From positions 1 to 46,879 of the forward strand of contig JANLIQ010000017.1 of assembly GCA_024654065.1 (NCBI GenBank): a stretch of 46,879 bases of DNA, written 5' to 3'. Both the position numbers and the translations under genes were made by a program. Origin of the DNA: Candidatus Berkelbacteria bacterium. GTDB lineage: Bacteria; Patescibacteriota; UBA1384; 2-12-FULL-50-11. This document shows, in pieces, positions 26,093 through 46,744 of this stretch; position 1 is the stretch's first letter, and every line of letters begins with the position of its first letter. Below the pieces are notes generated by a model that was not told the DNA's origin, did not search any database, and was given only the letters and a program-made list of their open reading frames with translations.

Positions 26093-26093
26093 G

Positions 26094-26906: not shown

Positions 26907-27065
26907 GGTCCCCCATGGCTTTCGCGTGCACAATGTCAACGGAGATATTCCGTCGAGAGGTCAGGCGATAAGTAGCGCCATGCTAGCGGAAAGACGGCAA
27001 AAAGTCAAGAGACTAGCTCAATAAGTTGTTATCGTTTGCCGCTAGGGGCTACTAATAGTCAAAAA

Positions 27066-28295
27066 TTACTGGCGCAATTTTCGTCTAATGAAGCTGGGTA
27101 CATCCAGCTCATCTTCGTCGGCTGGCTCTTCCTTCATCTCTGGTCGGTTGTGGTTCTTGGTGACGAAGGTATTATCATTTGGCTCAATTTCGGCTGGAAA
27201 TGTTGGTTGCGGTTGAGCCGGAGCCTGACGACCAAAGAAAGGAATACTAGAGACTGTTGGTGTTTGTGGTACAGAAAGTGTTGCACCGAAGCTTCCTGGT
27301 TCTTCGCTACCGAAACGACCTCTCTGTTTAGGAGCTGGCTTAACGATTTCGTTTTCAAAACCAGTTGCAATAACAGTTACTTTTATTTCACCAGACATAG
27401 ATTCATCTACGGTTGCACCAAAGATAACGTTGGCTTCTGGATCAGCTGCTTCTGTAATGGCCTTAGAGACTTCCTCTACCTCGTACATAGTCATATCTGG
27501 TCCACCGGTGATGTTATAGAGTATGCCCCGTGCCCCATCTATGGATAGCTCAAGTAGTGGTGAGTCGATTGCTTGGCGGGCTGCTTCTATTGCCCGGCTC
27601 TCACCAGATGCTCGTCCAATACCCATTAAGGCTGAACCAGCATCTTTCATAATTGTTCGAACATCAGCAAAGTCGACGTTGATAATAGCCGGTACGACAA
27701 TGATCTCAGAAATTCCCTGAACACCTTGGCGTAAGATATCGTCGACGATGCCGAAAGCATCAGTCATCGAAGTTTTCTTGTCGATAACCTGTAATAAGCG
27801 GTCGTTGGGGATGATAATTAAAGTGTCAACTTTCTCGCGTAATTCTTCGATACCCAGTTCGGCAACTTTTTTGCGTCGCAAACCCTCAAAACTGAATGGC
27901 TTTGTAACAACTCCAACGGTTAGAGCTCCAAGTTCTTTAGCGATTTGAGCGATCAACGGCGCTGCCCCAGTTCCGGTACCGCCGCCCATACCTGCAGTGA
28001 CAAAAACCATATTAGCCCCCTTGAGGACTTCATAGATTTCGTCTTTATTTTCTTCGGCAGATTTGCGTCCGACTTCAGTGTCGCTACCGGCGCCTAAGCC
28101 CTGGGTCGACTCTTTGCCGATTTGCACCTTAATCGGTGCGGGGTTACTGGAAAGTGCCTGAGCATCAGTATTTATAGCAATAAACTCAACTCCTCTAACT
28201 CGAGCGGCTATCATACGAGAAACGGCGTTGCCGCCGGAGCCTCCGATACCACAAACCTTAATACTGGCGAAGGTGTCGAGTGTGTCTTTATTCAT
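27066..28295 (-). CDS. ftsZ: cell division protein FtsZ
   Basis: Contains the [10 protein letters not shown] tubulin signature and a C-terminal DVPSFIRRK peptide. Confidence 0.95.
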
Positions 28296-28338
28296 CTATT
28301 TATATGGGGTTGTTTTATTTTATTAAGCGTAACTTAGA

Positions 28339-29577
28339 TTAATTACTAAAATTTCGTAGAATCCCACGAAATCGGTCAAATAACCCCCCCATTTTTCCGA
28401 AATCGTAGCGTGTATTACCATGCCCGGATTGATTCTCTTCTACTCCCCAGAGAACCAGCCCAACGGCGCAAGCGTAAATCGGATTATCAAGCTTGTCAAG
28501 CATGCCCGAAAATTGAGCAATGGGAAAACCAACAGTGGCCGGTAGTCGAAGCTCTTTACGGGCCAGCTCAGTTAGGCCTTCTATATCTGATCCACCGCCT
28601 GTGAATACGGCACCAGCAGGCAGTAGAGCATCTTTCCCGATAGCCTGTAATTGCTCTCTAATTAAATGAAAAATCTCGGCAACGCGAGCTTCTATAATTT
28701 CACAAATTTGTCGACGAGAAACTTTTTCGTCCTCTGCCGGGTCAAGCGATGAAAGATTAATCGTTTCAGATTCGCGGATTTTTTCGGGTAGTACAGACCC
28801 GTACTTAGTTTTAATTGCTTCGGCAACGTCAAGGTTGGTTCGTAAACCAATCGCGATATCATTTGTAATATGCATCGATCCAACAGGTAATGTCGCGCAG
28901 TGGATCAGCTCCCCTTCTTCGTAAACGGCAAAGTCAGTCGTACCTGCACCAAGATCAATTACAACTACGCCAGAGTCACGCTGTTTCTTTGTAGTCAGAG
29001 CCCGAGCGGTTGCAAGGGGTGCATAAACTAGACCATCGATTTGGACACCGGCCTGCTCAACAGTTTTTATCAAATTACGTAATGCTGCCGAGGAGGCACT
29101 AATAATCAAAGAATCCACCTCGAGGCGGATTCCATTCATCCCTATTGGGTCACGGATTTCATCCTGGCCATCAACAGTAAAATGGTGGGGAAAAGTATGG
29201 ATTAACTCTCGGTTCTGAGGTAAGGCGATGGTTTTAGCGGCATCGATCACGCGACCTACGTCTTCGGATTGAATTTCGCCGTTAGGTCGAGCTACTGCCA
29301 CCACTCCTTTGGCCGGTTGAGCCAGAACATGGGATCCATTAATAGAAACATAGGCGTGAGTTAAGGGAAAACCAGACATTTTTTCTGCTTCTTCCAGGGC
29401 TTGAGAAAGAGCGCTAACTGTTTCTTCGATATCTACTATCATCCCCTTCTTCATCCCGCCGTGACCTACTGAGGTTACACCCATTAAAGAAACTACTCCT
29501 TCAGTAATGCTACCAACACAAACAGCAATTTTAGAGGCTCCGATGTCGAGGCCAACAACTAACGGATCCTTTGCCAT
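28339..29577 (-). CDS. ftsA: cell division protein FtsA
   Basis: Actin-fold motifs are present (VGLDIGASKI, VIDLGAGTTD). Located immediately upstream of ftsZ. Confidence 0.92.
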   Translation of the reverse strand: MAKDPLVVGLDIGASKIAVCVGSITEGVVSLMGVTSVGHGGMKKGMIVDIEETVSALSQALEEAEKMSGFPLTHAYVSINGSHVLAQPAKGVVAVARPNGEIQSEDVGRVIDAAKTIALPQNRELIHTFPHHFTVDGQDEIRDPIGMNGIRLEVDSLIISASSAALRNLIKTVEQAGVQIDGLVYAPLATARALTTKKQRDSGVVVIDLGAGTTDFAVYEEGELIHCATLPVGSMHITNDIAIGLRTNLDVAEAIKTKYGSVLPEKIRESETINLSSLDPAEDEKVSRRQICEIIEARVAEIFHLIREQLQAIGKDALLPAGAVFTGGGSDIEGLTELARKELRLPATVGFPIAQFSGMLDKLDNPIYACAVGLVLWGVEENQSGHGNTRYDFGKMGGLFDRFRGILRNFSN

Positions 29578-29593
29578 TTCCCTCCCAAAGTAC

Positions 29594-29959
29594 TCATCTG
29601 TGGCTGAAGTCTAGTAAGTGAAGTAATCCGTGGCCGGCAAGCATCTTAACTTCGTCAATTAGTTTAATGCCAGCGATTAGGGCTTGTTTAGTAGCGGTAT
29701 CAAGACTAATAGCAATCGAACCAGTAAGGTCTTCTATTTTGCCCTCATAAGGGAAACTAAGCACGTCGGTTGGCTCATTAATTCCAAAAAAACGTTGTTT
29801 CAGTGCTTTAATCTCCTTGTCGGTTACTAATGATATCTCTACCTTTACTTTACCAACCGCTTTCAGGCGTAGCAAGATAGCGAGCAGATGCTGCTCGATT
29901 TCTTTTTGGTCTAGAGAAATATTAGTAGAGTTTTGCCAGAGTACAGATAGCTCGGCCAT
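29594..29959 (-). CDS. ybeY: rRNA maturation RNase YbeY
   Basis: Contains a HGLLHLLDFSH zinc motif. Start is taken at MAELSVLW so it does not overlap the upstream gene. Confidence 0.85.
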   Translation of the reverse strand: MAELSVLWQNSTNISLDQKEIEQHLLAILLRLKAVGKVKVEISLVTDKEIKALKQRFFGINEPTDVLSFPYEGKIEDLTGSIAISLDTATKQALIAGIKLIDEVKMLAGHGLLHLLDFSHR

Positions 29960-29960
29960 T

Positions 29961-30407
29961 TCAGCCGTTCTGGATCTGGTCACGTAAAATTTTTGAAACA
30001 AGACCCATATCTGCCTGACCCTTGAGTTTAGAGCTCAAAGCCCCCATTGCAGTACCCATTTGACTGATGTCTGTCGGATTAGATGAAAGGTATTCAGCTA
30101 TAACAGCCTTGATCCCCTCTTCACTCATCTGCTCAGGTAAGTATTTTTTTAAAAGTTCGGCTTCGGAGGCTTCGTTTGCTGCTAAGTCTGGTTTATTAGC
30201 CTGCTTAAAGAGAGTTTCGGCTTCTATACGCTTTTTTACTTCTTTTTGGATTAGGGAAACAACCTGTTCATCAGAAAGCGCTTGGCCAGCTTCAATTTCA
30301 GCATTTTTGATACTAGATTTAAGCAAACGTAGAGTATCACGCGAAAAGTTATTACCAGACTTGAGGGCTGTAGTTAGTTCAGTCTCTATTTGTTCGATCA
30401 AAGCCAT
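29961..30407 (-). CDS. GatB/YqeY domain protein
   Basis: 148 aa with typical YqeY sequence (ALKSGN..RDTLRLLKS..EAGQALSDEQ). Confidence 0.8.
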   Translation of the reverse strand: MALIEQIETELTTALKSGNNFSRDTLRLLKSSIKNAEIEAGQALSDEQVVSLIQKEVKKRIEAETLFKQANKPDLAANEASEAELLKKYLPEQMSEEGIKAVIAEYLSSNPTDISQMGTAMGALSSKLKGQADMGLVSKILRDQIQNG

Positions 30408-30604
30408 TAGAAAGTTCGGAAAGCTCTTCGGCGGACTGCTCTAGCTTGAGCGGACTGGCGGCGTTTAAAACGAGTTGGTTTCTTCTCAAAAAATCTACGT
30501 CGTTTTATCTCAGTCATGATCTCTGACTGTTGGACGTCACGGAAAAAACGTCGTAATACGACTTCTACGGGTAGGGCTCTTTTTTCTTCGCTGTATTCAG
30601 CCAT
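30407..30604 (-). CDS. rpsU: 30S ribosomal protein S21
   Basis: 65 aa and basic. Contains the FEKKPTRFKRRQS motif. Confidence 0.85.
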   Translation of the reverse strand: MAEYSEEKRALPVEVVLRRFFRDVQQSEIMTEIKRRRFFEKKPTRFKRRQSAQARAVRRRAFRTF

Positions 30605-30673
30605 TAGTTTTTAAATTGTAGCAGGAATTGGTGCGAAAGTTAAGAGATTCTGTGGATGCAGGGGGCTGATCAC

Positions 30674-31225
30674 CTACCTTCTGACACCAAACTTCAGGGC
30701 TACAAGCGTATCATATCCTTGGGTGACACGATCGGCTTCGGTCACACCTAATCGCTGAAGAAACTTAAATAATTTGTTTTGAGTTTCTTCAGGATTATTG
30801 TCGGTGACCGATAGTTCTTCTAGCTCGATAAAAGTACCCAAGTCTTCAACCTCGTCAACGCAAATCTCTATTCCGTGATAATCCGCTTTTTGCCGTTGCT
30901 TCTTTACCTCTACTGATAGTTTGTACTCAAGCGCTTCCAGTATTCTGGTAAGGGCGTCCGGGTCAACGACAGCTGTCTCCTCCGTTTGAACAGCTAGCTC
31001 GTTGACTCCGGAGCGTTTGAGCGCTAAAACAGCTTGGTTATTTTCTTTACGAATTCGCAGAAAGTTAGTATCTGGTTTGAATATTGTGATTTCCTCGAGA
31101 TCCTTCGGCGAAAATATCAGATCGTGTTGATAGGTGGGCTCTGATAGCTTTATCCCAAGTGACCCTAATCTTGCAAACAGCAGTCCAGGATTTGTTACTC
31201 TCGCCTTTACCTCAATCTCATTCAT
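30674..31225 (-). CDS. CYTH-domain protein (class IV adenylate cyclase / triphosphate tunnel metalloenzyme)
   Basis: N-terminal ExExK motif (EIEVKARV). 183 aa. Confidence 0.75.
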   Translation of the reverse strand: MNEIEVKARVTNPGLLFARLGSLGIKLSEPTYQHDLIFSPKDLEEITIFKPDTNFLRIRKENNQAVLALKRSGVNELAVQTEETAVVDPDALTRILEALEYKLSVEVKKQRQKADYHGIEICVDEVEDLGTFIELEELSVTDNNPEETQNKLFKFLQRLGVTEADRVTQGYDTLVALKFGVRR

Positions 31226-31778
31226 GCTCTAACTCATTAGCTAAATCTTGAAAATTGATAGCTGATCTCACCTGCCCTGACTCGGCTTTGGTGAGGGATC
31301 GCGTCTGCTCTAACAGCTCTTGAGCGGACGTCAAGCCGATGCCTAACCCATTCGGGCGGGTGTAAAGCGTGACGTGAAACGGCTGAGTCGGTATTTCTAT
31401 ACCCAGAGCTTTACGCATACCTACAAAGAAATTCTCTGTACCGTTGGTTTTGCACATGATTATCACAGTCTTTTTCTCACGTTCTTCGGCAACCCGAAGC
31501 TCATCCATAAAGTCGCTGACACTAGTTGGTTCTTCAGTAAGCAAACGACCTGATTCCTCGAGAATCTCCTCTTCCGCTTCTTCGAGCGAGGTACCCTGCT
31601 TCTCCGCTAAGATTGGCGCGTATTTCTTGACCGACAGTATACTCATATGAAATTCTGGTTTGGCAACTAACCTCTCCCCATCGACCTCTACTTCAGGCGA
31701 AATGTGTAGTAACGGTAGCTCTAGGCCAACATAGCCGCCCGCATATCTATAACCTTCCGGAAGGTTCTCTATGCTCAT
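31218..31778 (-). CDS. 2H phosphoesterase superfamily protein (LigT-like)
   Basis: Contains two H-x-(S/T)-x motifs, FHMSIL and FHVTLY. Start chosen at the ATGA overlap with the upstream stop. Confidence 0.6.
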   Translation of the reverse strand: MSIENLPEGYRYAGGYVGLELPLLHISPEVEVDGERLVAKPEFHMSILSVKKYAPILAEKQGTSLEEAEEEILEESGRLLTEEPTSVSDFMDELRVAEEREKKTVIIMCKTNGTENFFVGMRKALGIEIPTQPFHVTLYTRPNGLGIGLTSAQELLEQTRSLTKAESGQVRSAINFQDLANELEHE

Positions 31779-32224
31779 TTTTGACCCCAATCAAGCAGCT
31801 CGGTGAATCGAATGTAATAGCCGTAAGGGTCGGACATACGAAAGTCTTTCCAGGTTCTCTTACCATCGCCCTTCTCTTTCAATTCCTGGACGACGTTGTC
31901 TTTTAGATCTTTAAGCACCTCTTCGTAAAAGGCGTGAATTTCCTGAACTGGAATTGTCAGCGATATGGCATAACCTCGCGGAGTATTCTTATCGAATTGT
32001 TTGAAATATGACTGATCGTAAACTCGTTCATCGTCTCCGTAGAAATTTATCATAGTATCACCGAGCGGGTCCCCTCTTTGCATAACCATGTAGCCGGGAT
32101 ATTCTCCCTTAACATCTTCCGATATTATTTCAAAACCAAGTTTTGAATAAAAATCCTTAACCGGAGCAAACTCCGGCACATGAAGCTCGATAATTAGATT
32201 GTTTGCAATCGGTACTTCTGCCAT
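31775..32224 (-). CDS. VOC/glyoxalase-bleomycin resistance family protein
   Basis: 149 aa with beta-alpha-beta-beta-beta module-like sequence. It is the first gene behind repeat copy 1. Confidence 0.6.
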   Translation of the reverse strand: MAEVPIANNLIIELHVPEFAPVKDFYSKLGFEIISEDVKGEYPGYMVMQRGDPLGDTMINFYGDDERVYDQSYFKQFDKNTPRGYAISLTIPVQEIHAFYEEVLKDLKDNVVQELKEKGDGKRTWKDFRMSDPYGYYIRFTELLDWGQK

Positions 32225-32230
32225 TACCCA

Positions 32231-32259
32231 ATTCTACTCCTGAACCTAGAAATGTCGAG
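32231..32259 (-). repeat. 29-bp cassette promoter element, copy 1
   Basis: Minus strand reads CTCGACATTTCTAGGTTCAGGAGTAGAAT: TCGACA, 16 nt, TAGAAT. The ATG at 32224 follows 6 nt later. Confidence 0.8.
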
Positions 32260-32280
32260 CCACTCTGCTATTGTTAGGGC

Positions 32281-32697
32281 ATGGATGATTTTGTCGGTGT
32301 AAAAATCGCGTTACTTACTTCGGACGAAAAGTTGGTTGTATATTTAAGGGACAATAAACCCGACATAAATTTTCCTGGACTATGGGACTTCCCTGGTGGG
32401 GGTCGCGAGGGTAACGAAACCCCGACAGAATGTATTGTGCGTGAAGTCATGGAAGAATTCGGAATCAAGCTAAGAGCAAGTGGTCTTACCTTCTCTAGGA
32501 CTTTTCCTGCGATGAACGATGAAACTAAAACGGGATACTTCATGGTTGGCAGAGTATCTCAAAAAGATATTGACTCTATTAAATTCGGCAGCGAAGGTCA
32601 GCGGTGGAAGCTGATGGGGATAAAGGAGTTTATGGAAAGTGATGAAGTCGTCGAACCGTTAAAGAATAGGCTCGACTCCTATCTGTCCGCACTGTGA
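32281..32697 (+). CDS. NUDIX hydrolase
   Basis: Nudix box GGGREGNETPTECIVREVMEEFGI. Confidence 0.85.
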   Translation: MDDFVGVKIALLTSDEKLVVYLRDNKPDINFPGLWDFPGGGREGNETPTECIVREVMEEFGIKLRASGLTFSRTFPAMNDETKTGYFMVGRVSQKDIDSIKFGSEGQRWKLMGIKEFMESDEVVEPLKNRLDSYLSAL

Positions 32698-32710
32698 GGT
32701 TGTGCTCAAG

Positions 32711-32727
32711 GGTCCAAAAATGTCGAG
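32711..32727 (-). repeat. truncated copy (5' half only) of the cassette element, copy 2
   Basis: Minus strand reads CTCGACATTTTTGGACC, directly abutting the SGNH stop codon. The -10 half is absent. Confidence 0.6.
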
Positions 32728-33267
32728 TTATGTCCGTAGTATTTTCACGATCTCGTTTATTACCGTTCCATACCCCAGGTCATTAAAATGGATTCCATCT
32801 TCTTCGTGGTAGTCCTGGCCTGAATCTAGAATCTGTCTGAATACCGCGGGGTCGATGTATCTGATGTTGTTTTGGATAAGCACATTTTTTATTGCCTCAG
32901 CATATTGTTTGATTGTGGCGTTGGATCTTTGCTTTTTCAATTCCTGCCGATCTTCGTCAATTGGCGGCGGTAGCAGGAAAATCATTACCGAACCACTAAA
33001 GTCTTCAATAATTTTTTTAACGTTTTCAGCGACGGTCGCGATCTCTAGTTGTTGCCATGTTGAAGAGTCGTTCGTACCGAAGGAAAAAACCACAACCTCG
33101 GGCTGGAGTCGAGCGATGTAAGGCGCCTTGACGACTCCGTCATTAGTATCCCAGCCACAAGTGGCGCAGTTATAAACTTGATAACCAGTATTATTTTCCA
33201 GCGTTGAGACGTCAGCTTTGTGAAAATTGGCAATCAAGCTGTCGCCAAAAAGAATTAATTTCTTCAT
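32728..33267 (-). CDS. SGNH/GDSL hydrolase
   Basis: N-terminal LILFGDSLI (GDS block). The DGIHFN block is near the C-terminus. Confidence 0.8.
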   Translation of the reverse strand: MKKLILFGDSLIANFHKADVSTLENNTGYQVYNCATCGWDTNDGVVKAPYIARLQPEVVVFSFGTNDSSTWQQLEIATVAENVKKIIEDFSGSVMIFLLPPPIDEDRQELKKQRSNATIKQYAEAIKNVLIQNNIRYIDPAVFRQILDSGQDYHEEDGIHFNDLGYGTVINEIVKILRT

Positions 33268-33426
33268 CTAGAAATCCACCTCGATAACTTCTGGAGTGCT
33301 CTTGTAGTCACGAAGACGAGCCCACTCCCATTGCGTTCGCTCCGGGGTGTGGCGATGCATGAGGAGCAATCTGCCTTGTGGATCTAAAATAATACAACCA
33401 GCCAGGCGAACGGATAGGTCAGACAT
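33268..33426 (-). pseudogene. N-terminal NUDIX fragment (52 codons)
   Basis: MSDLSVRLAGCIILDPQGRLLLMHRHTPERTQWE resembles a Nudix N-terminus but ends before the Nudix box. The rest of track ORF 33268..33576 is antisense noise over the hydrolase gene. Confidence 0.45.
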
Positions 33427-33967
33427 CACCATAAATTGTTTTAATGTAGTCCAGTAGCTCGGGAATAGTTGCTTCGTTGACGAAGTGCTTTTTGTTTTTA
33501 AGCTTGAGTACTTTTGGTTGAAGCTTGCTGGCAATAAACTCAAATTCAGTCTGTGGAATATATGGGTCGGCATCATCGTAAATTAAAGCAATCTTCTCTT
33601 GATTGACTTTTATTGCTGACCAATCCCACGGCTTGTCGTAGTAGCCGCTCTGTTTTTCGAGCTCGTCGTCCAAATCCGTACAGCTAGGTGATATTAAGAC
33701 CGAACCTTTTATCTTATGATTTTCGGCGTAACGCATCGAAGCTGTACCGCCCGATGACCAGCCAACTAAAACATCGTCTTTACCAACTTTGACGTGATTT
33801 TCGAGAAAAGGTAACCAGTACTCGGCTCTAGCGATTACTGAATCTGGCATCGTTTCGAAGAATGTCGGGAAGCCTAGTTTTTCTAGTTCCATTTTCAACC
33901 ATTCACCAAAAGCAAACGACCAATGGGTTGCGTGATTGCCATGGATGAAGATTATTCTTGGTTTCAT
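33419..33967 (-). CDS. alpha/beta hydrolase (YdeN/RBBP9-like serine hydrolase)
   Basis: Contains IIFIHGN and the nucleophile elbow GWSSGG. 182 aa. Confidence 0.7.
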   Translation of the reverse strand: MKPRIIFIHGNHATHWSFAFGEWLKMELEKLGFPTFFETMPDSVIARAEYWLPFLENHVKVGKDDVLVGWSSGGTASMRYAENHKIKGSVLISPSCTDLDDELEKQSGYYDKPWDWSAIKVNQEKIALIYDDADPYIPQTEFEFIASKLQPKVLKLKNKKHFVNEATIPELLDYIKTIYGDV

Positions 33968-34554
33968 TTCTTTCTTGCTAATAGCCAGGCGGGCTCGGGA
34001 ATGAAAGTTATTTCCGACCAGGTGTCGATCTCGTGCTCGGTAAAATCGTAATACTTTTGGTAGGCAGTTTCGACGCTACCGTGCAAGGCATCTTTCCAGT
34101 CAAAACCAAGCTTGGTCGCCAAATCTTTAATCTCTGATTCGTTCGGCGCTTCTAGCTCGACAAATGCTGGGATCAACGGCCAGGTGTCGATCGTAATTTC
34201 ACAATTTCCAAGCGTCCACTTCTCTCTTTTAGTCTCTTGGTAGGATTTCTGAACTAGACCGATTGCCTTAAGTAGGTCAACCGTTTTCTCGAAGTCCCCT
34301 ACCGTTGTCTCGATCTCTTGCGTTCCGTGAAGAGTGCGATCATTCAGCTGTTTATACGAGAAAGTGATCTTGTCTCCTTCGTCACGAACTCGGATCCAGC
34401 CACCAATTTCTTTTAGTCGCGAATCTGGGTAATCAAAAACACAGCGACGCATCTGACGCTCGGCATGAACGAGTTTGGCACTGATCGCTCTCAACCGGTT
34501 CCGCAGTTTGTCGGCAACAACATCCAAGAACTTAGCTTCAACTTCTACTTGCAT
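33964..34554 (-). CDS. CYTH-domain protein, second copy
   Basis: N-terminal ExExK motif (VEVEAKF). ATGA overlap with the hydrolase gene. Confidence 0.7.
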   Translation of the reverse strand: MQVEVEAKFLDVVADKLRNRLRAISAKLVHAERQMRRCVFDYPDSRLKEIGGWIRVRDEGDKITFSYKQLNDRTLHGTQEIETTVGDFEKTVDLLKAIGLVQKSYQETKREKWTLGNCEITIDTWPLIPAFVELEAPNESEIKDLATKLGFDWKDALHGSVETAYQKYYDFTEHEIDTWSEITFIPEPAWLLARKK

Positions 34555-34560
34555 TACTCA

Positions 34561-34589
34561 ATTCTACTCCTGAACCAAGAAATGTCGAG
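34561..34589 (-). repeat. 29-bp cassette promoter element, copy 3
   Basis: Minus strand reads CTCGACATTTCTTGGTTCAGGAGTAGAAT. It starts right after the upstream TAA, and the ATG at 34554 follows 6 nt later. Confidence 0.8.
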
Positions 34590-34979
34590 TTACTTACGAA
34601 TCTTTGGAATTAGCTCTTGTGGGACTTTGTGCACTTCTACTTTTCTGAGGCCCATAACACTTGCTTTCATCAACCGATGAAGGCCGTCAAGAATCAGCCA
34701 ACGGTCTCGCCACCGCATTATATCGATCGGGTGTGATAAATCGGCATTGGCCACTCGTTCATGCTCGTCGTAATATTGATCGGGGCTGTCCAGGACCTGG
34801 CTTGACTTTAAATCGTAATAGCCATTTGGTTTTGTCCAGAGAAACGGTATGTCAAAATGCCAAGCCAGCTCTTTGATGTCCATTCCCTCAACTGGCAAAT
34901 CTAGTGCCCAAACTTTAGGTTCGTCCCAATCAAAGTCAAACCCCACTTCTTTGATTATCGCAGGCATTTGTCGATCCAT
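34590..34979 (-). CDS. ParB-like nuclease (ParB/Srx fold) domain protein
   Basis: Contains WLILDGLHRLMKA, matching the ParB N-terminal DG-x-HR motif. 129 aa. Confidence 0.6.
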   Translation of the reverse strand: MDRQMPAIIKEVGFDFDWDEPKVWALDLPVEGMDIKELAWHFDIPFLWTKPNGYYDLKSSQVLDSPDQYYDEHERVANADLSHPIDIMRWRDRWLILDGLHRLMKASVMGLRKVEVHKVPQELIPKIRK

Positions 34980-34985
34980 ATCTAG

Positions 34986-35014
34986 ATTCTACTCCCGAAC
35001 CAGGAATTGTCGAG
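34986..35014 (-). repeat. 29-bp cassette promoter element, copy 4
   Basis: Minus strand reads CTCGACAATTCCTGGTTCGGGAGTAGAAT. The ATG at 34979 follows 6 nt later. Confidence 0.8.
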
Positions 35015-35054
35015 TTAAGAACAGAAAGTGACCACCGAATCCCTTTCGGTGGTC
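35015..35054 (-). terminator. intrinsic terminator of the GC-rich orphan at 35076..35639
   Basis: Minus strand reads GACCACCGAA-AGGGA-TTCGGTGGTC followed by ACTTTCTGTTCTT. Confidence 0.65.
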
Positions 35055-35075
35055 AGGAAAAAGTTCTTGGCGCTG

Positions 35076-35639
35076 CTACCTGCGTTTTGCCATAGCAAGG
35101 TCGTGGAGTTCGCTCTCAGACAATAGTGCTAACCAAAAGCAAACCTTCCAGGACAGCTCTTGCTCCTCTGACAAGTCGTCTGAGAGACCCAGAAGCTGAT
35201 AGACCTGATCGATCGGCACTGGTCGCGCGTCTTGCTGGACGTCCCAAGCAAACTCTGTCGACATGTAGTCTCCCCCGCCTAGCCTCTTCCCGAGCTTAAC
35301 AGTGAAGACCGGCTCGCCATAGAAGCTTGGGCGAAGCGGCCAGTCACTTAAGAGTCGCCAACGATCACGGAATAGCAGCCTGGCTATAACCATCTCGTCC
35401 TTCTTGGTCCACTCTTTCAATAAGCTGTGAACTTCGTAGAGTAAGGCGATCCATCGGGCGACATTCCGTTCGGCATTCAAGGTGTAGAGCTGAACCTTAG
35501 CGCTACGAAGAGCAAGGCGTAGAGCGCTGGGCTCTCTTGGCAGAATCACGCTGAGCCACCACAGGTGAAGTCGAAGCCTTAGGCGGCCACGAAACACTTT
35601 TGTTGACACATCGTCGAAGCAATCAATGGAAAGGGACAT
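35076..35639 (-). CDS. GC-rich orphan protein (Arg/Leu/Trp-rich), unknown function
   Basis: ~60% GC. AGGAGG SD lies 6 nt upstream of the ATG. Bracketed by element copies 4 and 5. No motif recognised. Confidence 0.55.
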   Translation of the reverse strand: MSLSIDCFDDVSTKVFRGRLRLRLHLWWLSVILPREPSALRLALRSAKVQLYTLNAERNVARWIALLYEVHSLLKEWTKKDEMVIARLLFRDRWRLLSDWPLRPSFYGEPVFTVKLGKRLGGGDYMSTEFAWDVQQDARPVPIDQVYQLLGLSDDLSEEQELSWKVCFWLALLSESELHDLAMAKRR

Positions 35640-35784
35640 CGTGGCCTCCTATTTGGTTCTCGGATACTACAGGAATTTCGGCAAAAAGTCAACCCATGTT
35701 TTCGATTTTGTAGATTCTAGACTGCCGATACTACCTGGAAGTGGTGCGTTGGGTCTGGAATTTGCAATTCGCCCAGAGGCTCTT

Positions 35785-35812
35785 TTCTACTCCCGAACCT
35801 AAAAATGTCGAG
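35785..35812 (-). repeat. cassette promoter element, copy 5 (-10 is TAGAAA)
   Basis: Minus strand reads CTCGACATTTTTAGGTTCGGGAGTAGAA. It lies ~145 nt upstream of the orphan ATG. A further TAGAAT-containing partial copy is at 35712-35722. Confidence 0.7.
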
Positions 35813-35821
35813 ACCATTTTC

Positions 35822-35849
35822 TTGCAAATAGAATTACTAACGAGATAAT
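35822..35849 (+). promoter_or_regulatory. promoter TTGCAA-16-GATAAT, 6 nt from the ATG
   Basis: Read directly from the sequence. The ATG is at 35856. Confidence 0.55.
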
Positions 35850-35855
35850 TGGGCC

Positions 35856-36377
35856 ATGGATCTCAAGGAGCATCGGCGAGCGTATACAAAGGGGATGAAG
35901 AAAACGACGCTGGGGATTATCCGGAAGCCATCGGGCGAAGTTTGTTTAGCGATGAAAAAGCGTGGTTTTGGCGCCGGCAAGTGGAATTTCTCTGGCGGTA
36001 AGGTCCTGCTCGACGAGACACCCGAGCAATGTCTAGTTCGCGAGACCAAGGAAGAGTTTGGGGTAAAGATGAGCAACCTTCGACCGGTTGGTGTTCTCTA
36101 TTTCTATTTTTCCGATGTTCCAATTGAGAAAAATTGGAATCAAAAATGCTATGTCTTTGAGGCAGAAAATTGCGACGGTGAGCCACAAGAAAGTGAGGAG
36201 ATGCTCCCGAAGTGGTGGCGCCGAGACGCAATTCCATACCCAAAAATGTGGCAGGAGGATGAGTATTGGATCGAGCCCGTTCTCGACGAGCAGGTTTTAA
36301 CTGGCTACTTTCTCTTCACCTCAAGAGACGTCTGCTTGGAAAAAGAAATCGTAATAGGCAAAATTATCGACGAGTGA
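35856..36377 (+). CDS. NUDIX hydrolase, MutT/MTH1-like (oxidised nucleotide sanitiser)
   Basis: Contains KRGFGAGKWNFSGGKV and the Nudix box GGKVLLDETPEQCLVRETKEEFGV. Confidence 0.8.
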   Translation: MDLKEHRRAYTKGMKKTTLGIIRKPSGEVCLAMKKRGFGAGKWNFSGGKVLLDETPEQCLVRETKEEFGVKMSNLRPVGVLYFYFSDVPIEKNWNQKCYVFEAENCDGEPQESEEMLPKWWRRDAIPYPKMWQEDEYWIEPVLDEQVLTGYFLFTSRDVCLEKEIVIGKIIDE

Positions 36378-36379
36378 AT

Positions 36380-36961
36380 TCAGCGCGGTCGCCAGTTTTT
36401 GTTTAAATCTTCTTCTGTGACGCGGAAAATGGTTTCGTGATCGCCAGGCTTGAGACTATGGAGTTTGCAGAGTTCTAGGCCGCATTCACGCTTCTCTTTC
36501 TCTTTGGACTCCTTCTCTTTTAATATTTCTGGCGGAAAAGAAAAGTCGGTGTTGATGAGCTCACAGTTATAGTCTGGTCCAAGTACCAGTTCGAGTGTCC
36601 AAAGAGCCCTCTGACCCATCGGATAGACACTTACAAGGGCAATTCGGGTCCAATTATTCGGTATAAGAAATTTCTTTTTAATGAAATAGGCATTAGTGAC
36701 GGTGGTGTACGCTTCTTCTTCTAGCAGTATCGCCTTTTCAGGTAAGCCAAGATTTTTGGCGTAGTTTGCCATCGCTCGGGCTTCGGTGGTTGGCGGGGTG
36801 TAGTCGAGGGTGTATGTCCACTTACCGCTAAAGATTATTTTGTCGGCTTGGCCGGAATCATAGAGCTTAACGGCTTCCTCAACTGTAGATTTAGCACTTT
36901 CTGATGTTGACCCGTCTTTATACACCCCTCTGCCAAAAACCAAAATTGCATCATATTTCAT
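36380..36961 (-). CDS. DUF218/YdcF-like protein
   Basis: Begins ILVFGRGV.. and carries conserved YdcF-like core features. 193 aa. Confidence 0.55.
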   Translation of the reverse strand: MKYDAILVFGRGVYKDGSTSESAKSTVEEAVKLYDSGQADKIIFSGKWTYTLDYTPPTTEARAMANYAKNLGLPEKAILLEEEAYTTVTNAYFIKKKFLIPNNWTRIALVSVYPMGQRALWTLELVLGPDYNCELINTDFSFPPEILKEKESKEKEKRECGLELCKLHSLKPGDHETIFRVTEEDLNKNWRPR

Positions 36962-36984
36962 AACGTTAAATTGTTAGTTTAGTC

Positions 36985-37641
36985 CTAGACATTACTTAAC
37001 AGTTCGAGAAATTTCTGATCAGTCAATAAGGAGTGGGTTAATGATATGATGCTCGTTCCTTCATCCCATTTACTGGCAATATACTGCCGAACTTCTTGAT
37101 GTTGAAGGTATCCTTTGTCTTCCCGTTCGATTAGATCACCAAATTCCAGATTGAGTAAAACCGTTAAAGACTCTTTGTATTCGTTGTACAGCTGGGGGCT
37201 GATATTTAATTTGATGTATTTATGAGTGAAAAGGTGTAGTAGCTCGTGGATGCAGACCATATTTGGTTCGGCGCTAAACAAATTGAGAAAAAAGTAATCC
37301 TCTTGAGTATTGTAGCTACAGCGTTCATTGAGACTAAGATAACAGGCGAACTCCGTGTCATCGTTTTGTGCCTCAAAAAGCTTGGTAAGGCGTTCAAAAA
37401 CGTCTGTATCTACGGCTTGCCATCCATCAGAAAACTGTCGAATCTTTTCTTCGGCAGATATTCCCTCTTCAGTTACAATTTTTCGGCAGGCGGCAGTGAC
37501 GGTCACTTCGGAGTTGATATCGACACCTAACTCTTTGAGTTTTCTACTAAAGTCTGAGGGGCGACTACGATTAAGCGATCTATTGCCAGCTTGCAGATTA
37601 AGGAACTCTTTTTCGGCTTCGTACCGGAATACTAAACGCAT
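36985..37641 (-). CDS. HExxH-motif protein (putative zinc metallopeptidase-like), unknown family
   Basis: Contains IHELLHLFTH. Its ATG overlaps the HIT stop codon. Confidence 0.5.
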   Translation of the reverse strand: MRLVFRYEAEKEFLNLQAGNRSLNRSRPSDFSRKLKELGVDINSEVTVTAACRKIVTEEGISAEEKIRQFSDGWQAVDTDVFERLTKLFEAQNDDTEFACYLSLNERCSYNTQEDYFFLNLFSAEPNMVCIHELLHLFTHKYIKLNISPQLYNEYKESLTVLLNLEFGDLIEREDKGYLQHQEVRQYIASKWDEGTSIISLTHSLLTDQKFLELLSNV

Positions 37642-37973
37642 TAATACATTCCTTTGGCAGGAGCGCCACCAAGCAGGTGGAGGTGGACGTGGTCTATCTC
37701 TTGCCCTGCGTGCTTGCCGACATTAAACAATAAACGGTAACCAGTTTCTTTCACTCCAAGAATCTGGGCGATTTCTTCGCTTCCAGTGAGCATATCCCCT
37801 ATCTCTTCCGGTCGTAGCTCCTCTGGTCTTTCAACGTGTCGTTTTGGAACAATCAGTACGTGGACGGGGGCTTTCGGGTGAATATCTCTGAAAGCAATAT
37901 AATGGCTAGTTTCTATTACTTTTTCACACGGAAGTTCTTCTGAAATAATCTTACAAAACAAACAGTTTTCCAT
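37641..37973 (-). CDS. HIT-family (histidine triad) nucleotide hydrolase/transferase
   Basis: Contains CLFCKII and HVHLHLLGG. Start is taken at MENCLF; the track GTG at 37982 is possible. Confidence 0.85.
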   Translation of the reverse strand: MENCLFCKIISEELPCEKVIETSHYIAFRDIHPKAPVHVLIVPKRHVERPEELRPEEIGDMLTGSEEIAQILGVKETGYRLLFNVGKHAGQEIDHVHLHLLGGAPAKGMY

Positions 37974-38009
37974 TATGGTCACATCTTACCAAAATAGTAC
38001 CTAAACTCA

Positions 38010-38038
38010 TTGACATATACTTTCGTATCTGTTAGAAT
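38010..38038 (+). promoter_or_regulatory. consensus-like promoter TTGACA-17-TAGAAT
   Basis: Read directly from the sequence. It lies ~75 nt upstream of the transglycosylase gene. Confidence 0.65.
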
Positions 38039-38113
38039 TCTCATTACTTCCGCTGGGAAGCTTTTCCGTTAGTCATTGGGTAACTGATGCAGGAAGTATA
38101 ACCAGAGGATGCA

Positions 38114-38809
38114 ATGAGAAAGAATATGAAAAAAACCTTGTTTGGTCGTTTGACCAAACTTCAAGGGAGGATTACTAAGTTCGTTAAAAAATCGCGAGAC
38201 AGCCGACGTTTCATCTTAACGATGGTCGCCGTCTGGACTATAATCCCTGCTCTTTCTGTCAATGCGGCTGATAGCAACATCACCCCAATTGAGCCAATTG
38301 TTACTAATGTAACGGTTGGACAAAATCTTCAGATCGAGCAACCTAAATTCTCTGTCGAGCTTCGTCAATCTCCTCGCCAGATAGCTAAAAAGAAAGAGGA
38401 AATCCGATTGGCAACCGCTGTTATTCAAACAACAATTAGCGGAACCGACGAAGAGAAACGTGTATGGGCTCAAAAAGCTGCTCAAACTTGGGGAATTGAC
38501 TGGAAATTGCTTTGGGCTGTATGGAAGGTTGAATCTGGTACTCAAATGAGTACTGCCGTTCGATCTTATGCCGGTGCTCAAGGACCACTTCAATTCATGC
38601 CAGGTACGTGGCGAGCATATGCTCAAGACGGAAATGGTGACGGTGTTAAGAACATTAACGACGCCCGGGATAGTCTGTTTGGAGCTGCTAAGTTATTAGC
38701 AGTTAACGGTGCTGCTTCAGGAAATGTTGACGGAGCCTTGCTTCGCTACAATCATTCCCTTAGTTATGTAGCCCATGTCAAACGGATTGCTGCCTCAATT
38801 GGTGGCTAA
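38114..38809 (+). CDS. membrane-anchored lytic transglycosylase (SLT/MltB-like domain)
   Basis: Contains GAQGPLQFMPGTWRAYAQDGNGDG and a TM anchor. Confidence 0.8.
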   Translation: MRKNMKKTLFGRLTKLQGRITKFVKKSRDSRRFILTMVAVWTIIPALSVNAADSNITPIEPIVTNVTVGQNLQIEQPKFSVELRQSPRQIAKKKEEIRLATAVIQTTISGTDEEKRVWAQKAAQTWGIDWKLLWAVWKVESGTQMSTAVRSYAGAQGPLQFMPGTWRAYAQDGNGDGVKNINDARDSLFGAAKLLAVNGAASGNVDGALLRYNHSLSYVAHVKRIAASIGG

Positions 38810-38835
38810 AATCGCGAAATGAACAAACAAGAAGT

Positions 38836-38864
38836 CCCTGCAGAAAATGCGGGGCTTTTTGTTT
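38836..38864 (+). terminator. intrinsic terminator
   Basis: CCCTGC-AGAAAAT-GCGGGG followed by CTTTTTGTTT. Confidence 0.65.
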
Positions 38865-38876
38865 GAGAAGTTCTAT

Positions 38877-39203
38877 CTACTCCTTTAATCTAAACCAAAT
38901 TATTTTTACGATAGTTTCGGGGCCAATGGATTGATCGTAGTAGTCAGAAAAAGATGCGTACATTTCTTCGTTGCTTCCATACTTTTCATGTCCCTTGATC
39001 TCTTCTTTTTTCAATTTACCCATCTGTCTCTCTAGAACCTTAGTGACCACTGCTCGGGTAAACACTTCTCTCGTATTAGCATTTACGAATTCAATTTCGT
39101 CATCCTTTTGGATGTTTTTATCATCAAACAAACGCCATGTTGAGTATTTCTTACCAGATAAGACGCAAGAAACCAGCTCTTCTCTGAATTTAAGAGACTT
39201 CAT
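38877..39203 (-). CDS. ASCH-domain protein
   Basis: 108 aa with an ASCH-like N-terminus (KFREELVSCVLSGKKYSTWRL). Confidence 0.6.
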   Translation of the reverse strand: MKSLKFREELVSCVLSGKKYSTWRLFDDKNIQKDDEIEFVNANTREVFTRAVVTKVLERQMGKLKKEEIKGHEKYGSNEEMYASFSDYYDQSIGPETIVKIIWFRLKE

Positions 39204-39243
39204 CGTTCCATTCTAAGTGATGAACCGAGTTTGCAACAGAGGG

Positions 39244-40332
39244 CTATACGCTTGGTGCAACTATTGATCCGTCTTGAGGTAGAATCTCGACCCAAATCTT
39301 TCCACGATTAAGTGGAATTTCGACTCCCTGACTATCATAAAATCTGGTTCGTTCCAGACGTGATGGTTTCTTCCAGGTTCCTTCTGTCCGCGTGCCGTCC
39401 TGGAAAACGCTAGCCGCTCCCGAGCCGATTGTGGTCATTGTCCATTCAGATTCTTTGCCAGTTCCGGCGTAAGGAGGATTTGCCGAGTGACTTACGGTCA
39501 TCACAACAATAGATTTAGCTGTAATCTGTTCACCAGATACCCTGTCGTTGTGATTTACACTATTCATTACCCGACTATACGTATTCGCAGTCGAGTCATG
39601 TGTCCAAACAGTTTGAAATTGAGTCGTTGAGAAATTCAGTGTTATTTTAGGCACCGTACCAAAGGTCGTAGCCTGTTCCTTAAATTTCCAGCTGGGAGTT
39701 GTGTAAGTAGAGGGCCATTTTTTATTACTTACTCCTAAATTATAGATCTTGGATACATCAACAAATAAGGTGTGTTCACTAGCAATACCAGCTTGGGGTA
39801 TTCGAGTGTAGGCGTCATTAGAATGAGGGTAGTCTTTAATGCCGTATGAACTAATACGAGACAGTGCTGCTGGTGAACCACCGGCGTGAGCATAAAATGC
39901 ATCATACTCACTTAGCCAATCAATAAAATATGATCTTGCGGAACGAACTGGTCCAGCCTTAGTTGGATAATTCTGAGAAAAGATTCCCATAAATCTAGTT
40001 ATGCCACCTTCAGTTACTGCCTCATAGACGATATCAGCACTATTTAATCCAGCCTGAGGTCGAGCATCGGGTGAATTTTCGATCATAACGGCGACGGGAT
40101 GACGGTTAGCAATATCGGCAGTTACCATGACGCCATTAGTTAAACTCGCAACCAAATTTGTCGAGTTCTTTTTGTTGAGGGTAATATTGGGTGTTTCTTC
40201 GGTAGAATTTGGCTTGGTAATAATCCAGAAAATTGCGGCAACGGCTACAACAATAAGTATCGGCAAAACAATCACAAAGAACTTTTTATGATTAATGAAA
40301 AATAACTTAAATCGACTCGTTTCCCCCTCCAT
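39244..40332 (-). CDS. DUF3048 (YerB-like) exported protein
   Basis: TM anchor followed by HPVAVMIENSPDARPQAGLNSADIVYEAVTEGGITRF, which is typical of DUF3048. Confidence 0.75.
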   Translation of the reverse strand: MEGETSRFKLFFINHKKFFVIVLPILIVVAVAAIFWIITKPNSTEETPNITLNKKNSTNLVASLTNGVMVTADIANRHPVAVMIENSPDARPQAGLNSADIVYEAVTEGGITRFMGIFSQNYPTKAGPVRSARSYFIDWLSEYDAFYAHAGGSPAALSRISSYGIKDYPHSNDAYTRIPQAGIASEHTLFVDVSKIYNLGVSNKKWPSTYTTPSWKFKEQATTFGTVPKITLNFSTTQFQTVWTHDSTANTYSRVMNSVNHNDRVSGEQITAKSIVVMTVSHSANPPYAGTGKESEWTMTTIGSGAASVFQDGTRTEGTWKKPSRLERTRFYDSQGVEIPLNRGKIWVEILPQDGSIVAPSV

Positions 40333-40422
40333 TACCTTACGCTACCAGCAAATGTTTTTTATGCCAAGAGAGGTGACAGCAGCGTAATTATATGCTACTA
40401 TTCTTACGATCAATATCGCGAG

Positions 40423-40926
40423 GTGAGGTGTACATTGAAAAAAATATCAGTCAAGGATCGAGTGCTGGTGCTTTGTCCCGGTCTCAGAGTCAAGGGCGGT
40501 ACTCAGTTTACCGATGATGACGCGGTTTTCTGTCCTGGAATCGGCGAACAGATTCCGGCCGCTGTCAGTCATTTGGACTCAGCCAAATCGCTCAAAGTAG
40601 TTTGGTCACCTGAGCTGTGTGATGACCGAGCACAGCTGTGGCTAAAAGAAACAGTTCCGGTGCTGGAGCGGTTCCGTTTGACGGAAAAGCTTCATACGCT
40701 AGCTCCACGCTCTTTCCGCGGAGAATTGGGTGGTGGCACCATCGTCTATGAATCGAAGGATGTCCTGCTGGCAGAGTTCTTCGAACTCCTTACGACTTTG
40801 CGGAGTATGAGCAATTCGGCGAGAATCGTTTATCAGCGTTGTGCCAAAAGGCATCGAGACGAAGAGGAGAGAACCAACGACATGCATCGCCGACAGGGGG
40901 ATGAATACGCCCGTAATCACGGCTAG
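40423..40926 (+). CDS. orphan protein with elevated GC, unknown function
   Basis: Sampled stretches are ~48-53% GC. It is the only plus-strand gene between two minus-strand housekeeping genes. The start is ambiguous: GTG 40423, or TTG 40435 behind GGTGAGGTG. Confidence 0.4.
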   Translation: MRCTLKKISVKDRVLVLCPGLRVKGGTQFTDDDAVFCPGIGEQIPAAVSHLDSAKSLKVVWSPELCDDRAQLWLKETVPVLERFRLTEKLHTLAPRSFRGELGGGTIVYESKDVLLAEFFELLTTLRSMSNSARIVYQRCAKRHRDEEERTNDMHRRQGDEYARNHG

Positions 40927-40932
40927 GTCCAA

Positions 40933-46738: not shown

Positions 46739-46744
46739 AATACT

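Follow-up and report, generated by a model that had tools for sequence, protein, structure and literature searches.

A putative accessory-gene hot spot of small hydrolases between hit and rpsU in a Saccharibacteria-like Patescibacteria genome

We analysed a contig of 46,879 nucleotides (JANLIQ010000017.1; this whole stretch is referred to as the window) from a genome described as Saccharibacteria-like Patescibacteria, focusing on the interval 30674-37982, in which 14 tightly packed open reading frames (ORFs) are found, 12 of the 14 on the minus strand. A preliminary description made from the DNA letters had seen here a dense cluster of nucleotide-directed hydrolases with duplicated members under a shared promoter, and had taken it for a coordinated system. 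The dense cluster of small hydrolase genes is real, with families borne out by hidden Markov models (HMMs), invariant motifs or predicted folds, and the assignment to the candidate phyla radiation (CPR) was also correct. The explanation that we favour, at a probability of roughly 0.6, makes the stretch an accessory-gene hot spot peculiar to this lineage, located between hit and rpsU-yqeY-ybeY-ftsA-ftsZ, exchanged by recombination and holding enzymes that would act on their own.

An empty site and the limits of the island

The boundaries of the island are set by a relative in which it is missing. In L108 (GCA_038062535.1) only 62 bp lie between HIT and rpsU, the S21 protein is identical, and the flanking genes follow in the same order. 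In blastn, homology between the window and this empty site stops at 30623 and restarts at 37639, placing the island at 30624-37638 (7,015 bp), between HIT and rpsU. L108 was retrieved by exact-sequence look-up of S21 together with L107, which is the contig L001, and L109 (GCA_024653705.1). As L109 is 100% identical to window positions 27940-40604, its sequence identifies it as the same organism.

The left side of the island is formed by rpsU, yqeY, ybeY, ftsA and ftsZ, and the right side, beyond HIT, by SLT, ASCH, DUF3048 and the CCA-adding enzyme. HIT adjoining rpsU/yqeY is a widespread arrangement, seen in the Saccharibacteria-like metagenome-assembled genomes L004 and L005, in which 160-180 bp separate HIT from rpsU in these more distant relatives, and in Chloroflexota, Armatimonadota and Bacillota. 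Because the arrangement spans so many phyla, HIT is, by its gene order, conserved backbone rather than a member of the island, as it had been counted before. Neither the island nor its immediate surroundings contain an integrase, transposase, tRNA or terminal repeat; scans of the window for tRNAs and Rfam families returned no match, and hence there is neither a tRNA-linked island nor a known riboswitch or other RNA in the intergenic elements. The two flanking genes are:

30407-30604, minus strand: rpsU (S21), left-hand conserved flank, with promoter TTAACT-17-TACAAT at 30615-30643
37641-37982, minus strand: HIT (HinT-like), right-hand conserved flank, with the likely true start at the ATG at 37973

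The HIT protein matches Pfam PF01230 (E 4e-27, 95.3 bits, cutoff 21.5) and carries the histidine triad HVHLHLLGG; HinT/purine nucleoside phosphoramidase models are its best in NCBIfam, scoring under their equivalog cutoffs.

Island content differs between related genomes

Relatives were gathered by a genome scan with YqeY followed by tblastn, and the congeners compared have flanks of 70-89% nucleotide identity. The HIT-rpsU interval measures 62 bp, 2.0, 4.3, 5.8, 7.0 (the window) and 9.4 kb, with differing contents:

L001, 2.0 kb: NYN, cytidine deaminase, methyltransferase and a 29-aa DUF218 remnant
L003, 4.3 kb: HD-motif protein, DUF218, NUDIX2, VOC
L093, 5.8 kb: HExxH, MGS/IMPCH-like, DUF218, truncated NUDIX, M15 peptidase, VOC, g2, EEP
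L002, 9.4 kb, 14 genes: HExxH, HD-motif, DUF218, NUDIX2, NYN, S51, Pdf, deoxyribosyltransferase-like, CYTH2, another NUDIX, VOC, g2, EEP
L082, at least 5 kb: methyltransferase, F420-ligase-like, His_Phos_1, NUDIX, PNPOx, g2, alpha/beta hydrolase, C39
L088, L112, L113 and L116, partial contigs that do not span the interval: VOC-g2-rpsU

In the presence/absence matrix only the genes for the HExxH protein, DUF218/NUDIX2 and VOC/g2 (g2 being a 2H-type phosphoesterase-like protein) recur, and this scaffold is interrupted by three variable slots. The HExxH gene is present in L002, L093 and L097, NUDIX2 in these three and in L003, DUF218 in L002 and L003, and the VOC-g2 pair in L002, L088, L093, L097, L112, L113 and L116; L093 and L097 hold a DUF218 gene that is recognized by Pfam and divergent (29% identity or no tblastn match to that of the window). 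Among the other genes, CYTH2 has an 89% identical counterpart in L002 only and NUDIX1 was found among relatives only in the metagenome contig L090 (90%). CYTH1, the SGNH hydrolase, the small alpha/beta hydrolase (abH) and a GC-rich orphan are in no related island of the matrix. Relative to L002, the ratio of nonsynonymous to synonymous substitutions (dN/dS) is 0.06 for DUF218, 0.07 for CYTH2, 0.09 for g2, 0.10 for VOC and 0.20 for the HExxH gene, with dS of ~1-2; because of these values (0.06-0.20), the shared scaffold genes and CYTH2 are, on the evidence of their codons, functional and under purifying selection. The coordinated system proposed earlier fails on this comparison because its genes are not linked across related genomes: the site is empty in L108 and the cassettes differ elsewhere, an outcome that the preliminary description had itself named as refuting its proposal.

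A protein of 425-428 aa encoded between HExxH/HIT and DUF218 in L002 (1154-2440) and L003 (5612-6889) has an HD-like motif, HDDSHGPYSH, and no Pfam match. This protein may be a divergent dNTP triphosphohydrolase-like enzyme.

A promoter-like element reused from gene to gene

A repeat search recovered four copies of an intergenic element, all of them inside the island and none in the other 39 kb of the window; the 15-nt core likewise occurs four times in the window (0.13 expected by chance). The element is about 36-50 nt long, has the minus-strand consensus CTCGACAwTTCywGGTTCrGGAGTAGAAT, and is laid out as TCGACA (-35), 16 nt and TAGAAT (-10), each copy beginning directly after the preceding stop codon. 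The copies are:

32215-32264, minus strand: copy 1, heading VOC-g2-CYTH1; ATG 7 nt past the -10 box
34545-34594, minus strand: copy 2, directly after the ParB-like stop and heading CYTH2-abH-(scar)-SGNH; ATG 7 nt past the -10 box
34970-35019, minus strand: copy 3, TCGACA-16-TAGAAT, heading the ParB-like gene alone; ATG 7 nt past the -10 box
35768-35817, minus strand: copy 4, probably a relic; -10 box TAGAAA (final T lost), without an ATG at the spacing seen in the other copies; the orphan begins 130 nt downstream

The shared promoter element of the preliminary description is confirmed: its four copies are confined to the island, where three of them head a unit each and the fourth is the apparent relic, and the element is not found ahead of NUDIX1, NUDIX2, DUF218, the HExxH gene or HIT. 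Because the ATG lies only 6-8 nt past the -10 box, the element is probably a -35/-10 promoter that would yield leaderless mRNAs, and a leaderless architecture is predicted for many genes. A literature search found nothing relevant on leaderless mRNAs in Patescibacteria, or on Nudix in Saccharibacteria. The element was also compared by eye, which is not a formal test, with LexA-box consensus sequences, and no convincing match was seen; a LexA repressor gene is located at 46139-46774 on the minus strand, outside the island.

The same element recurs in relatives, ahead of an S51 peptidase gene, Pdf, CYTH2 and a NUDIX gene in L002, ahead of VOC in L003, L093 and L097, and ahead of three genes in L082. 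A metagenome scan with TCGACA-N6-GGTTCRGGAGTAGAA retrieved 12 contigs, in which the genes behind the element encode VOC, g2, SET, a second 2H/DUF1045-type protein, an APH-type kinase, an SDR, a methyltransferase-like protein and an unknown protein; in L083 the element is followed by a SET-domain gene. Relatives together hold 28 distinct copies, nearly all with the ATG 6-11 nt past the -10 box and often with a stop codon just before the element, and variants that lose TCGACA retain GGTTCrrGAGTAnnAT. One 27-nt copy was found on a phage contig of 31,678 bp with portal, virion structural and tail-fibre genes (L087/L106, IMGVR_UViG_3300025276_000123), at 2729-2755 on the minus strand and ahead of a structural gene of ~720 aa. 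L087 may represent a phage that infects this Patescibacteria lineage and has adopted the consensus promoter of its host. Because the element heads unrelated genes, a phage structural gene included, it is not a signature of nucleotide enzymes; most likely it serves the lineage as a strong standard promoter that has been reused from one gene to the next.

Synteny with relatives breaks at the edges of this element. Homology to L002 ends at 34593, the 5' edge of the copy ahead of CYTH2, and at 32231, the 3' edge of the copy ahead of VOC; homology to L003 ends at the 5' edge of the VOC copy. In L090, NUDIX1 and the element are kept and the gene behind the element differs, the break falling between the -10 box and the ATG. 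Such breakpoints fit an exchange or deletion of modules by recombination. In the explanation that we favour, the island consists of a scaffold (HExxH, the convergent DUF218/NUDIX2 pair and VOC-g2) with three slots in which whole single-enzyme cassettes come and go, those of this genome being the orphan, the ParB/Srx gene, CYTH2, abH, the NUDIX/PNPOx scar described below, SGNH, NUDIX1 and CYTH1, and with three transcription units each started by a near-identical promoter module of 36-40 bp. As the group is naturally competent, cassettes would be added, swapped and deleted through homologous recombination where genes or elements end; the scar, the DUF218 remnant and the relic promoter would be traces of loss. 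The enzymes themselves would act independently, as hydrolases that serve housecleaning, salvage and detoxification in an epibiont without its own nucleotide synthesis, candidate examples being the MutT-like NUDIX, the CYTH triphosphatases, the 2H phosphoesterase and a ParB/Srx protein that would bind nucleoside triphosphates. Natural competence has been shown for Saccharibacteria in culture, and the group has no de novo route to nucleotides (PMC10633639).

Genes of the island

Between the two flanks, the features of the island are as follows:

30674-31225, minus strand: CYTH1, window-specific cassette; ExExK motif present as EIEVK; 8-nt overlap with the g2 stop
31218-31778, minus strand: g2, 2H-type phosphoesterase-like; 186 aa if translated from the ATG at 31778, the ORF itself extending to 31790
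31775-32224, minus strand: VOC/glyoxalase-fold protein, island core gene paired with g2; weak Pfam Glyoxalase match (21.9 bits, cutoff 20.6)
32281-32697, plus strand: NUDIX1, divergent from VOC; Pfam PF00293 (E 2e-12, 47.6 bits, cutoff 21.1)
32728-33267, minus strand: SGNH/GDSL hydrolase, window-specific and last in the CYTH2 unit; Pfam Lipase_GDSL_2 (E 1e-18); ribosome-binding site GAGGTGGA
33271-33418, minus strand: deletion scar, a 148-nt gap between abH and SGNH without its own start codon
33419-33967, minus strand: abH, small alpha/beta hydrolase, window-specific; Pfam Abhydrolase_6 and Ser_hydrolase; start overlaps the CYTH2 stop
33964-34554, minus strand: CYTH2; ExExK motif within VEVEAK; Pfam PF01928 (E 4e-14, 53.3 bits, cutoff 23.2)
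34590-34979, minus strand: ParB-like protein (predicted ParB/Srx fold), 129 aa, single-gene cassette
35076-35639, minus strand: GC-rich orphan, 187 aa, window-specific cassette; GC 0.53-0.55 versus ~0.45
35856-36377, plus strand: NUDIX2 (MutT-like), island core gene; Pfam PF00293 (E 5e-15, 56 bits, cutoff 21.1)
36380-36961, minus strand: DUF218, island core gene convergent with NUDIX2; Pfam E 6e-19
36985-37641, minus strand: HExxH protein, 218 aa, island core gene; start overlaps the HIT stop

For the two CYTH, the two intact NUDIX, SGNH, alpha/beta, VOC, DUF218 and HIT proteins the earlier family assignments are confirmed by Pfam or NCBIfam matches above cutoff, that of VOC being weak. CYTH1 matches PF01928 (E 6e-22, 78.8 bits, cutoff 23.2) and TIGR00318 (75 bits, cutoff 58), which supports the family call; the name of the latter, 'class IV adenylate cyclase', does not settle its activity. 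The closest homologue of CYTH1 is 52% identical, and its homologues outside the clade have unrelated neighbourhoods; an exact-sequence look-up of CYTH2 gave no match. Complete Nudix boxes (Gx5Ex7REUxEExGU) are present in NUDIX1 and NUDIX2 as GGREGNETPTECIVREVMEEFGI and GKVLLDETPEQCLVRETKEEFGV. MutT models score best for NUDIX2, yet under cutoff, and NUDIX1 and the NUDIX of L002 have weak Nudt16-like matches. NUDIX2 has a promoter of its own, TTGCAA-16-GATAAT, ending 7 nt ahead of the ATG. The preliminary description spoke of duplicated members. CYTH1 and CYTH2 are 22% identical, and NUDIX1 and NUDIX2 are similar in the Nudix box only, which rules out a recent tandem duplication of either; judged by these sequence identities, both pairs are distant paralogues and not duplicates.

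No Pfam, NCBIfam or PDB sequence match was obtained for g2, a family with only 11 homologues among 5.8e9 proteins. Its motifs H44-M-S46 and H135-V-T137 are invariant in the alignment of all 11, in keeping with the two H-x-T/S motifs of 2H proteins. The AlphaFold2 (AF2) model, with a predicted local distance difference test score (pLDDT) of 89, has as its top Foldseek match among the viral models of BFVD a phage 'Swiss Army Knife' (SAK) 2H phosphoesterase (E 7.6e-4, probability 1.0, template modelling (TM) score 0.35-0.40). Against the PDB nothing was found at E<=1e-3, and at least 11 of the top 50 matches are 2H proteins (TM 0.22-0.36), the weak matches including ns2, Usb1, AKAP18, LigT and Acb1. 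The earlier 2H call can therefore be kept in part, with invariant motifs and weak fold matches in its favour and no Pfam match; g2 appears to be a divergent 2H-like protein, its name resting on those motifs and fold matches. In L095, g2 adjoins Ham1 (ITPase) and PNPOx, within a PNPOx-Ham1-g2-DUF5680-ParB-like cluster.

The ParB-like protein similarly has no Pfam match. For its AF2 model (pLDDT 87) all 50 of the top 50 Foldseek PDB matches are ParB/Srx folds (probability 0.99 to 1.0), among them Noc, ParB, Srx, SbnI, KorB, SerK and Osa, and the motif D98-G-L-H-R102 is invariant in 36 homologues and aligned to the DGvHR of SbnI in a profile match (E 0.016). Fold matches and DGxHR motif alike uphold the ParB-like domain named in the preliminary description, and the predicted ParB/Srx fold carries no implication of nuclease activity. 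The family has >550 members with ~60% identity across CPR. Elsewhere its genes are located in a glycosyltransferase cluster (L098) or behind g2 and DUF5680 near rplJ/rplL. On the unrelated contigs L100 (4980-9078) and L101 we observed a conserved four-gene group of NUDIX, a 213-aa unknown, ParB-like and SET, and the L100 copy of this group directly adjoins a DDE transposase and a serine recombinase (resolvase).

The HExxH protein of the earlier account does have the motif, as HELLH, which is also present in L002, and no Pfam or NCBIfam family could be assigned to it; PDB/Pfam sequence searches of this protein and g2 returned noise only, such as Slo-like RCK, CdiI_4 (E 0.02) and TpF1. The GC-rich orphan had been singled out correctly. 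Among 1.84e9 representatives, five clusters contain full-length homologues of it (35-55% identity), which rules out a non-coding stretch, as well as its own promoter-like site, an AGGAGG Shine-Dalgarno sequence and a hairpin at 35029-35055 after the gene; on these sequence grounds it is a real but rare gene.

The 'NUDIX fragment' of the preliminary description turned out to be chimeric. Its N-terminal part has a weak NUDIX likeness (E 0.06 over 26 aa) and no Nudix box. Joined to this part in frame are the last 18-21 residues of a PNPOx-like protein, with 14/21 (67%) matching the C-terminus of the L082 PNPOx (E 3e-5). In L082 a NUDIX gene is directly followed by that PNPOx gene, so the joining of a NUDIX-like N-terminus to a PNPOx C-terminus marks the remnant as the scar of an internal deletion.

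Likeness to known systems

Minimal mobile elements (MMEs), defined in Neisseria, are two conserved genes bracketing a hot spot that is filled by recombination, as the definition is quoted in PMC3082526. The island resembles them in that hit and rpsU bracket differing whole-gene cassettes, the empty state included, without an integrase, transposase, tRNA or terminal repeat and in a host group that is naturally transformable (PMC10633639). It differs in that several slots, set into a conserved internal scaffold, make up a mosaic where an MME has a single alternative cassette, in the standardised promoter that many of its cassettes carry, and in having been compared between species of a genus and not strains, with recombination inferred here. 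Near-identical promoters reused before unrelated genes have been documented as putative mobile promoters (PMC3575422), and the near-identical upstream sequences before non-homologous genes, within and across genomes (4 + 28 copies), are alike in this respect. Unlike those, the island element is ~36 nt long, fills the space from stop to ATG, implies leaderless mRNAs and is concentrated in one hot spot, and its phage copy agrees with mobility and likewise with a consensus promoter of the lineage.

An array of short single genes, mostly co-oriented, without a common function and differing from one relative to another, also recalls integrons. The cassettes of the island have their own promoter instead of a shared Pc, and overlaps of 4-8 nt leave no room for a site between several of the genes. 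An integron was rejected, as there is no intI among the window ORFs with family matches, there are no attC-like inverted-repeat arms in the element, and genes overlap. Folding of two copies of the element with RNA parameters gave a weak minimum free energy of -4 to -6 kcal/mol. With known housecleaning families (MutT-type NUDIX, HinT, CYTH/TTM, 2H and Ham1) the island proteins share domains, catalytic motifs and a small single-domain size; they differ in that the sole equivalog-level match is CYTH1 to TIGR00318, and that g2 and the ParB/Srx protein represent divergent uncharacterised subfamilies.

Hot spots and promoter reuse are already known. Here, in a CPR genome, the hot spot takes the form of a compact mosaic of cassettes with a standardised and probably leaderless promoter and contains two uncharacterised, well-conserved small families, the g2 2H-like and the ParB/Srx-like proteins. 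A bolder proposal, which we regard as doubtful, is an integrase-free cassette system in which the 36-nt leaderless promoter would both express cassettes and be the homology patch for their swap, deletion and capture by natural transformation, with CPR epibionts gaining a quickly diversifying repertoire, biased to nucleotide-directed hydrolases, that would tune salvage from particular hosts or counter nucleotide-based immunity.

Alternative explanations

Six of the seven window genes of nucleotide-directed families lie within 13 of 47 genes (hypergeometric P ~1e-3, on our own gene counts) and, the flanking HIT aside, no gene of such a family is found among the 33 other window genes. This concentration of six genes in 7 kb speaks for a co-regulated nucleotide salvage or sanitation regulon, in which a shared promoter/operator would serve to recycle host-derived nucleotides and RNA fragments: CYTH would strip polyphosphate or triphosphate, NUDIX and HinT would cleave (deoxy)nucleotide derivatives, and 2H would open 2',3'-cyclic ends. 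The three units under one promoter with an unusually conserved spacer would suit such a regulon, as would the cytidine deaminase, deoxyribosyltransferase-like, HD-motif, IMPCH-like and NYN genes of related islands, the adjacency of g2 to Ham1 and PNPOx in L095 and the lack of de novo nucleotide synthesis in Saccharibacteria (PMC10633639). We nevertheless consider it unlikely. The set is not conserved, a congener having the empty site; CYTH1, CYTH2, NUDIX1 and the ParB-like gene are missing from most related islands, and elsewhere the members occur singly in unrelated contexts. Both NUDIX genes and HIT are without the element, which in relatives stands ahead of SET, kinase, SDR, Pdf, peptidase and phage genes too, and half of the island (VOC, SGNH, abH, DUF218, HExxH and the orphan) is not nucleotide-directed. 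Scavenging or sanitising, as proposed in the preliminary description, is still the likeliest theme where several of the enzymes are considered one by one, and not as a coordinated system. We read the nucleotide-directed bias, which holds in the window and recurs loosely in related islands, as the make-up of the accessory enzyme pool of an epibiont living on nucleotides that it imports, and not as a pathway.

Defence genes are typically found in variable hot spots flanked by core genes, and the conflict setting that had been suggested would make the island a means of degrading nucleotide second messengers or depleting nucleotides, as phage defence or as counter-defence against host immunity, with a 2H enzyme like Acb1 and NUDIX, HIT and CYTH acting on signalling nucleotides. 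Consistent with this, the g2 model weakly resembles phage 2H enzymes, Acb1 included, the same site in relatives holds HD-motif (dNTPase-like), cytidine deaminase and NYN genes, and in L100 ParB-like, NUDIX and SET genes adjoin a transposase and a resolvase. PADLOC matches NUDIX to PDC-S07 and HIT to ThsC, but these are generic domains, with no sensor, cyclase, effector, partner genes or multi-gene system, and because the matches are generic the conflict reading is left without specific support. Every protein is small and single-domain, the Acb1 matches to the g2 model reach a probability of only 0.07-0.13 (TM 0.2-0.3), and the core genes, like housekeeping genes, are conserved by vertical descent and purifying selection; we judge this explanation very unlikely. 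Likewise improbable in our estimation is a toolkit for processing or repairing RNA ends, acting on leaderless mRNA ends or damaged tRNAs beside YbeY, ASCH and the CCA-adding enzyme. Here CYTH would be an RNA 5'-triphosphatase, NUDIX would be RppH-like, HIT would decap or de-adenylylate, and 2H would be a 2',3'-cyclic phosphodiesterase or 2'-5' ligase. Such RNA-end chemistry is established for TTM/CYTH, RppH, DcpS/aprataxin and LigT/Usb1, and the chemistry of the families fits, as do the presence of YbeY, ASCH, the CCA-adding enzyme and a NYN gene in the window, the leaderless architecture predicted for many genes, and the weak Nudt16-like matches of NUDIX1 and the L002 NUDIX. As with the other system readings, though, there is no conserved linkage; the best NUDIX matches are MutT-type and not RppH, no RNA ligase or kinase partner is present, and YbeY and the CCA-adding enzyme are backbone irrespective of the island.

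Several observations weigh against the accessory-gene hot spot that we prefer. About half of the assignable cassettes across related islands act on nucleotides or nucleic acids (NUDIX, CYTH, 2H, HD-motif, NYN, deaminase, deoxyribosyltransferase-like, EEP and, next to g2 in L095, Ham1), and there may be a common functional theme, or selection for one, across islands. A shared promoter would give co-expression, which is one form of coordination; its 16-nt spacer is kept far beyond what sigma-70 needs and could be the operator of a regulator, and the GGAG 12 nt ahead of the ATG could be a weak ribosome-binding site, promoter activity and leaderless start both being predicted from spacing alone. 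The restriction of the element to the hot spot was judged on stretches of ~20 kb. Recombination would be the cause of the breakpoints rather than a process directly observed, and the comparison, made between congeneric species and not strains, says nothing on the rate of turnover.

Other variable sites in the window

Between SLT and DUF3048 the window has an ASCH gene (38877-39203, minus strand) that L001, L003, L093, L097 and L108 lack, and its site is for this reason a second small variable slot in the sequences compared. The region upstream of ASCH (GGTTCA...TAGAAT, 6 nt, ATG) resembles the island element. At 40333-40932 a gap of ~600 bp separates DUF3048 from the CCA-adding enzyme (21-350 bp in relatives), and an ORF there (40423-40926, plus strand; 167 aa, GTG start), with no family and no counterpart in relatives, may be an indel or spurious. 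A further GC-rich region (0.53) at 25986-27065, between the class II ribonucleotide reductase gene and ftsZ, is not conserved with L001 at the DNA level; Rfam finds nothing in it, and the overlapping ORFs 25777-26430 (plus strand) and 26427-26939 (minus strand) have no Pfam/NCBIfam match. The reductase gene has an intein (Intein_splicing, HNH/LAGLIDADG) in L107 and L108 and none in the 1075-aa version of the window.

Tandem genes at 7358-12720 (plus strand) encode proteins of 810 and 977 aa with TrwB/VirD4-type coupling-protein domains, after His_Phos_1, TGT and a 107-aa ORF. The order His_Phos_1-TGT-small ORF-coupling protein is also found in L095, ~4 kb downstream of its cluster with g2 and the ParB-like gene. 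A separate NYN-domain gene is located at 44390-44890 (minus strand), outside the island.

Implications

Patescibacteria have tiny genomes and hosts that supply nucleotides, and the genes that vary between relatives show where adaptation occurs. At this locus small hydrolases of nucleotides and esters, inserted downstream of a promoter that is already at hand, account for much of the variation, which provides a concrete and testable model for gene gain and expression without classical mobile elements. The element is moreover a compact candidate promoter for genetics in the now-transformable Saccharibacteria. For the reading of such genomes more generally, the island is a caution that dense clusters of related enzyme families need not be pathways or defence systems.

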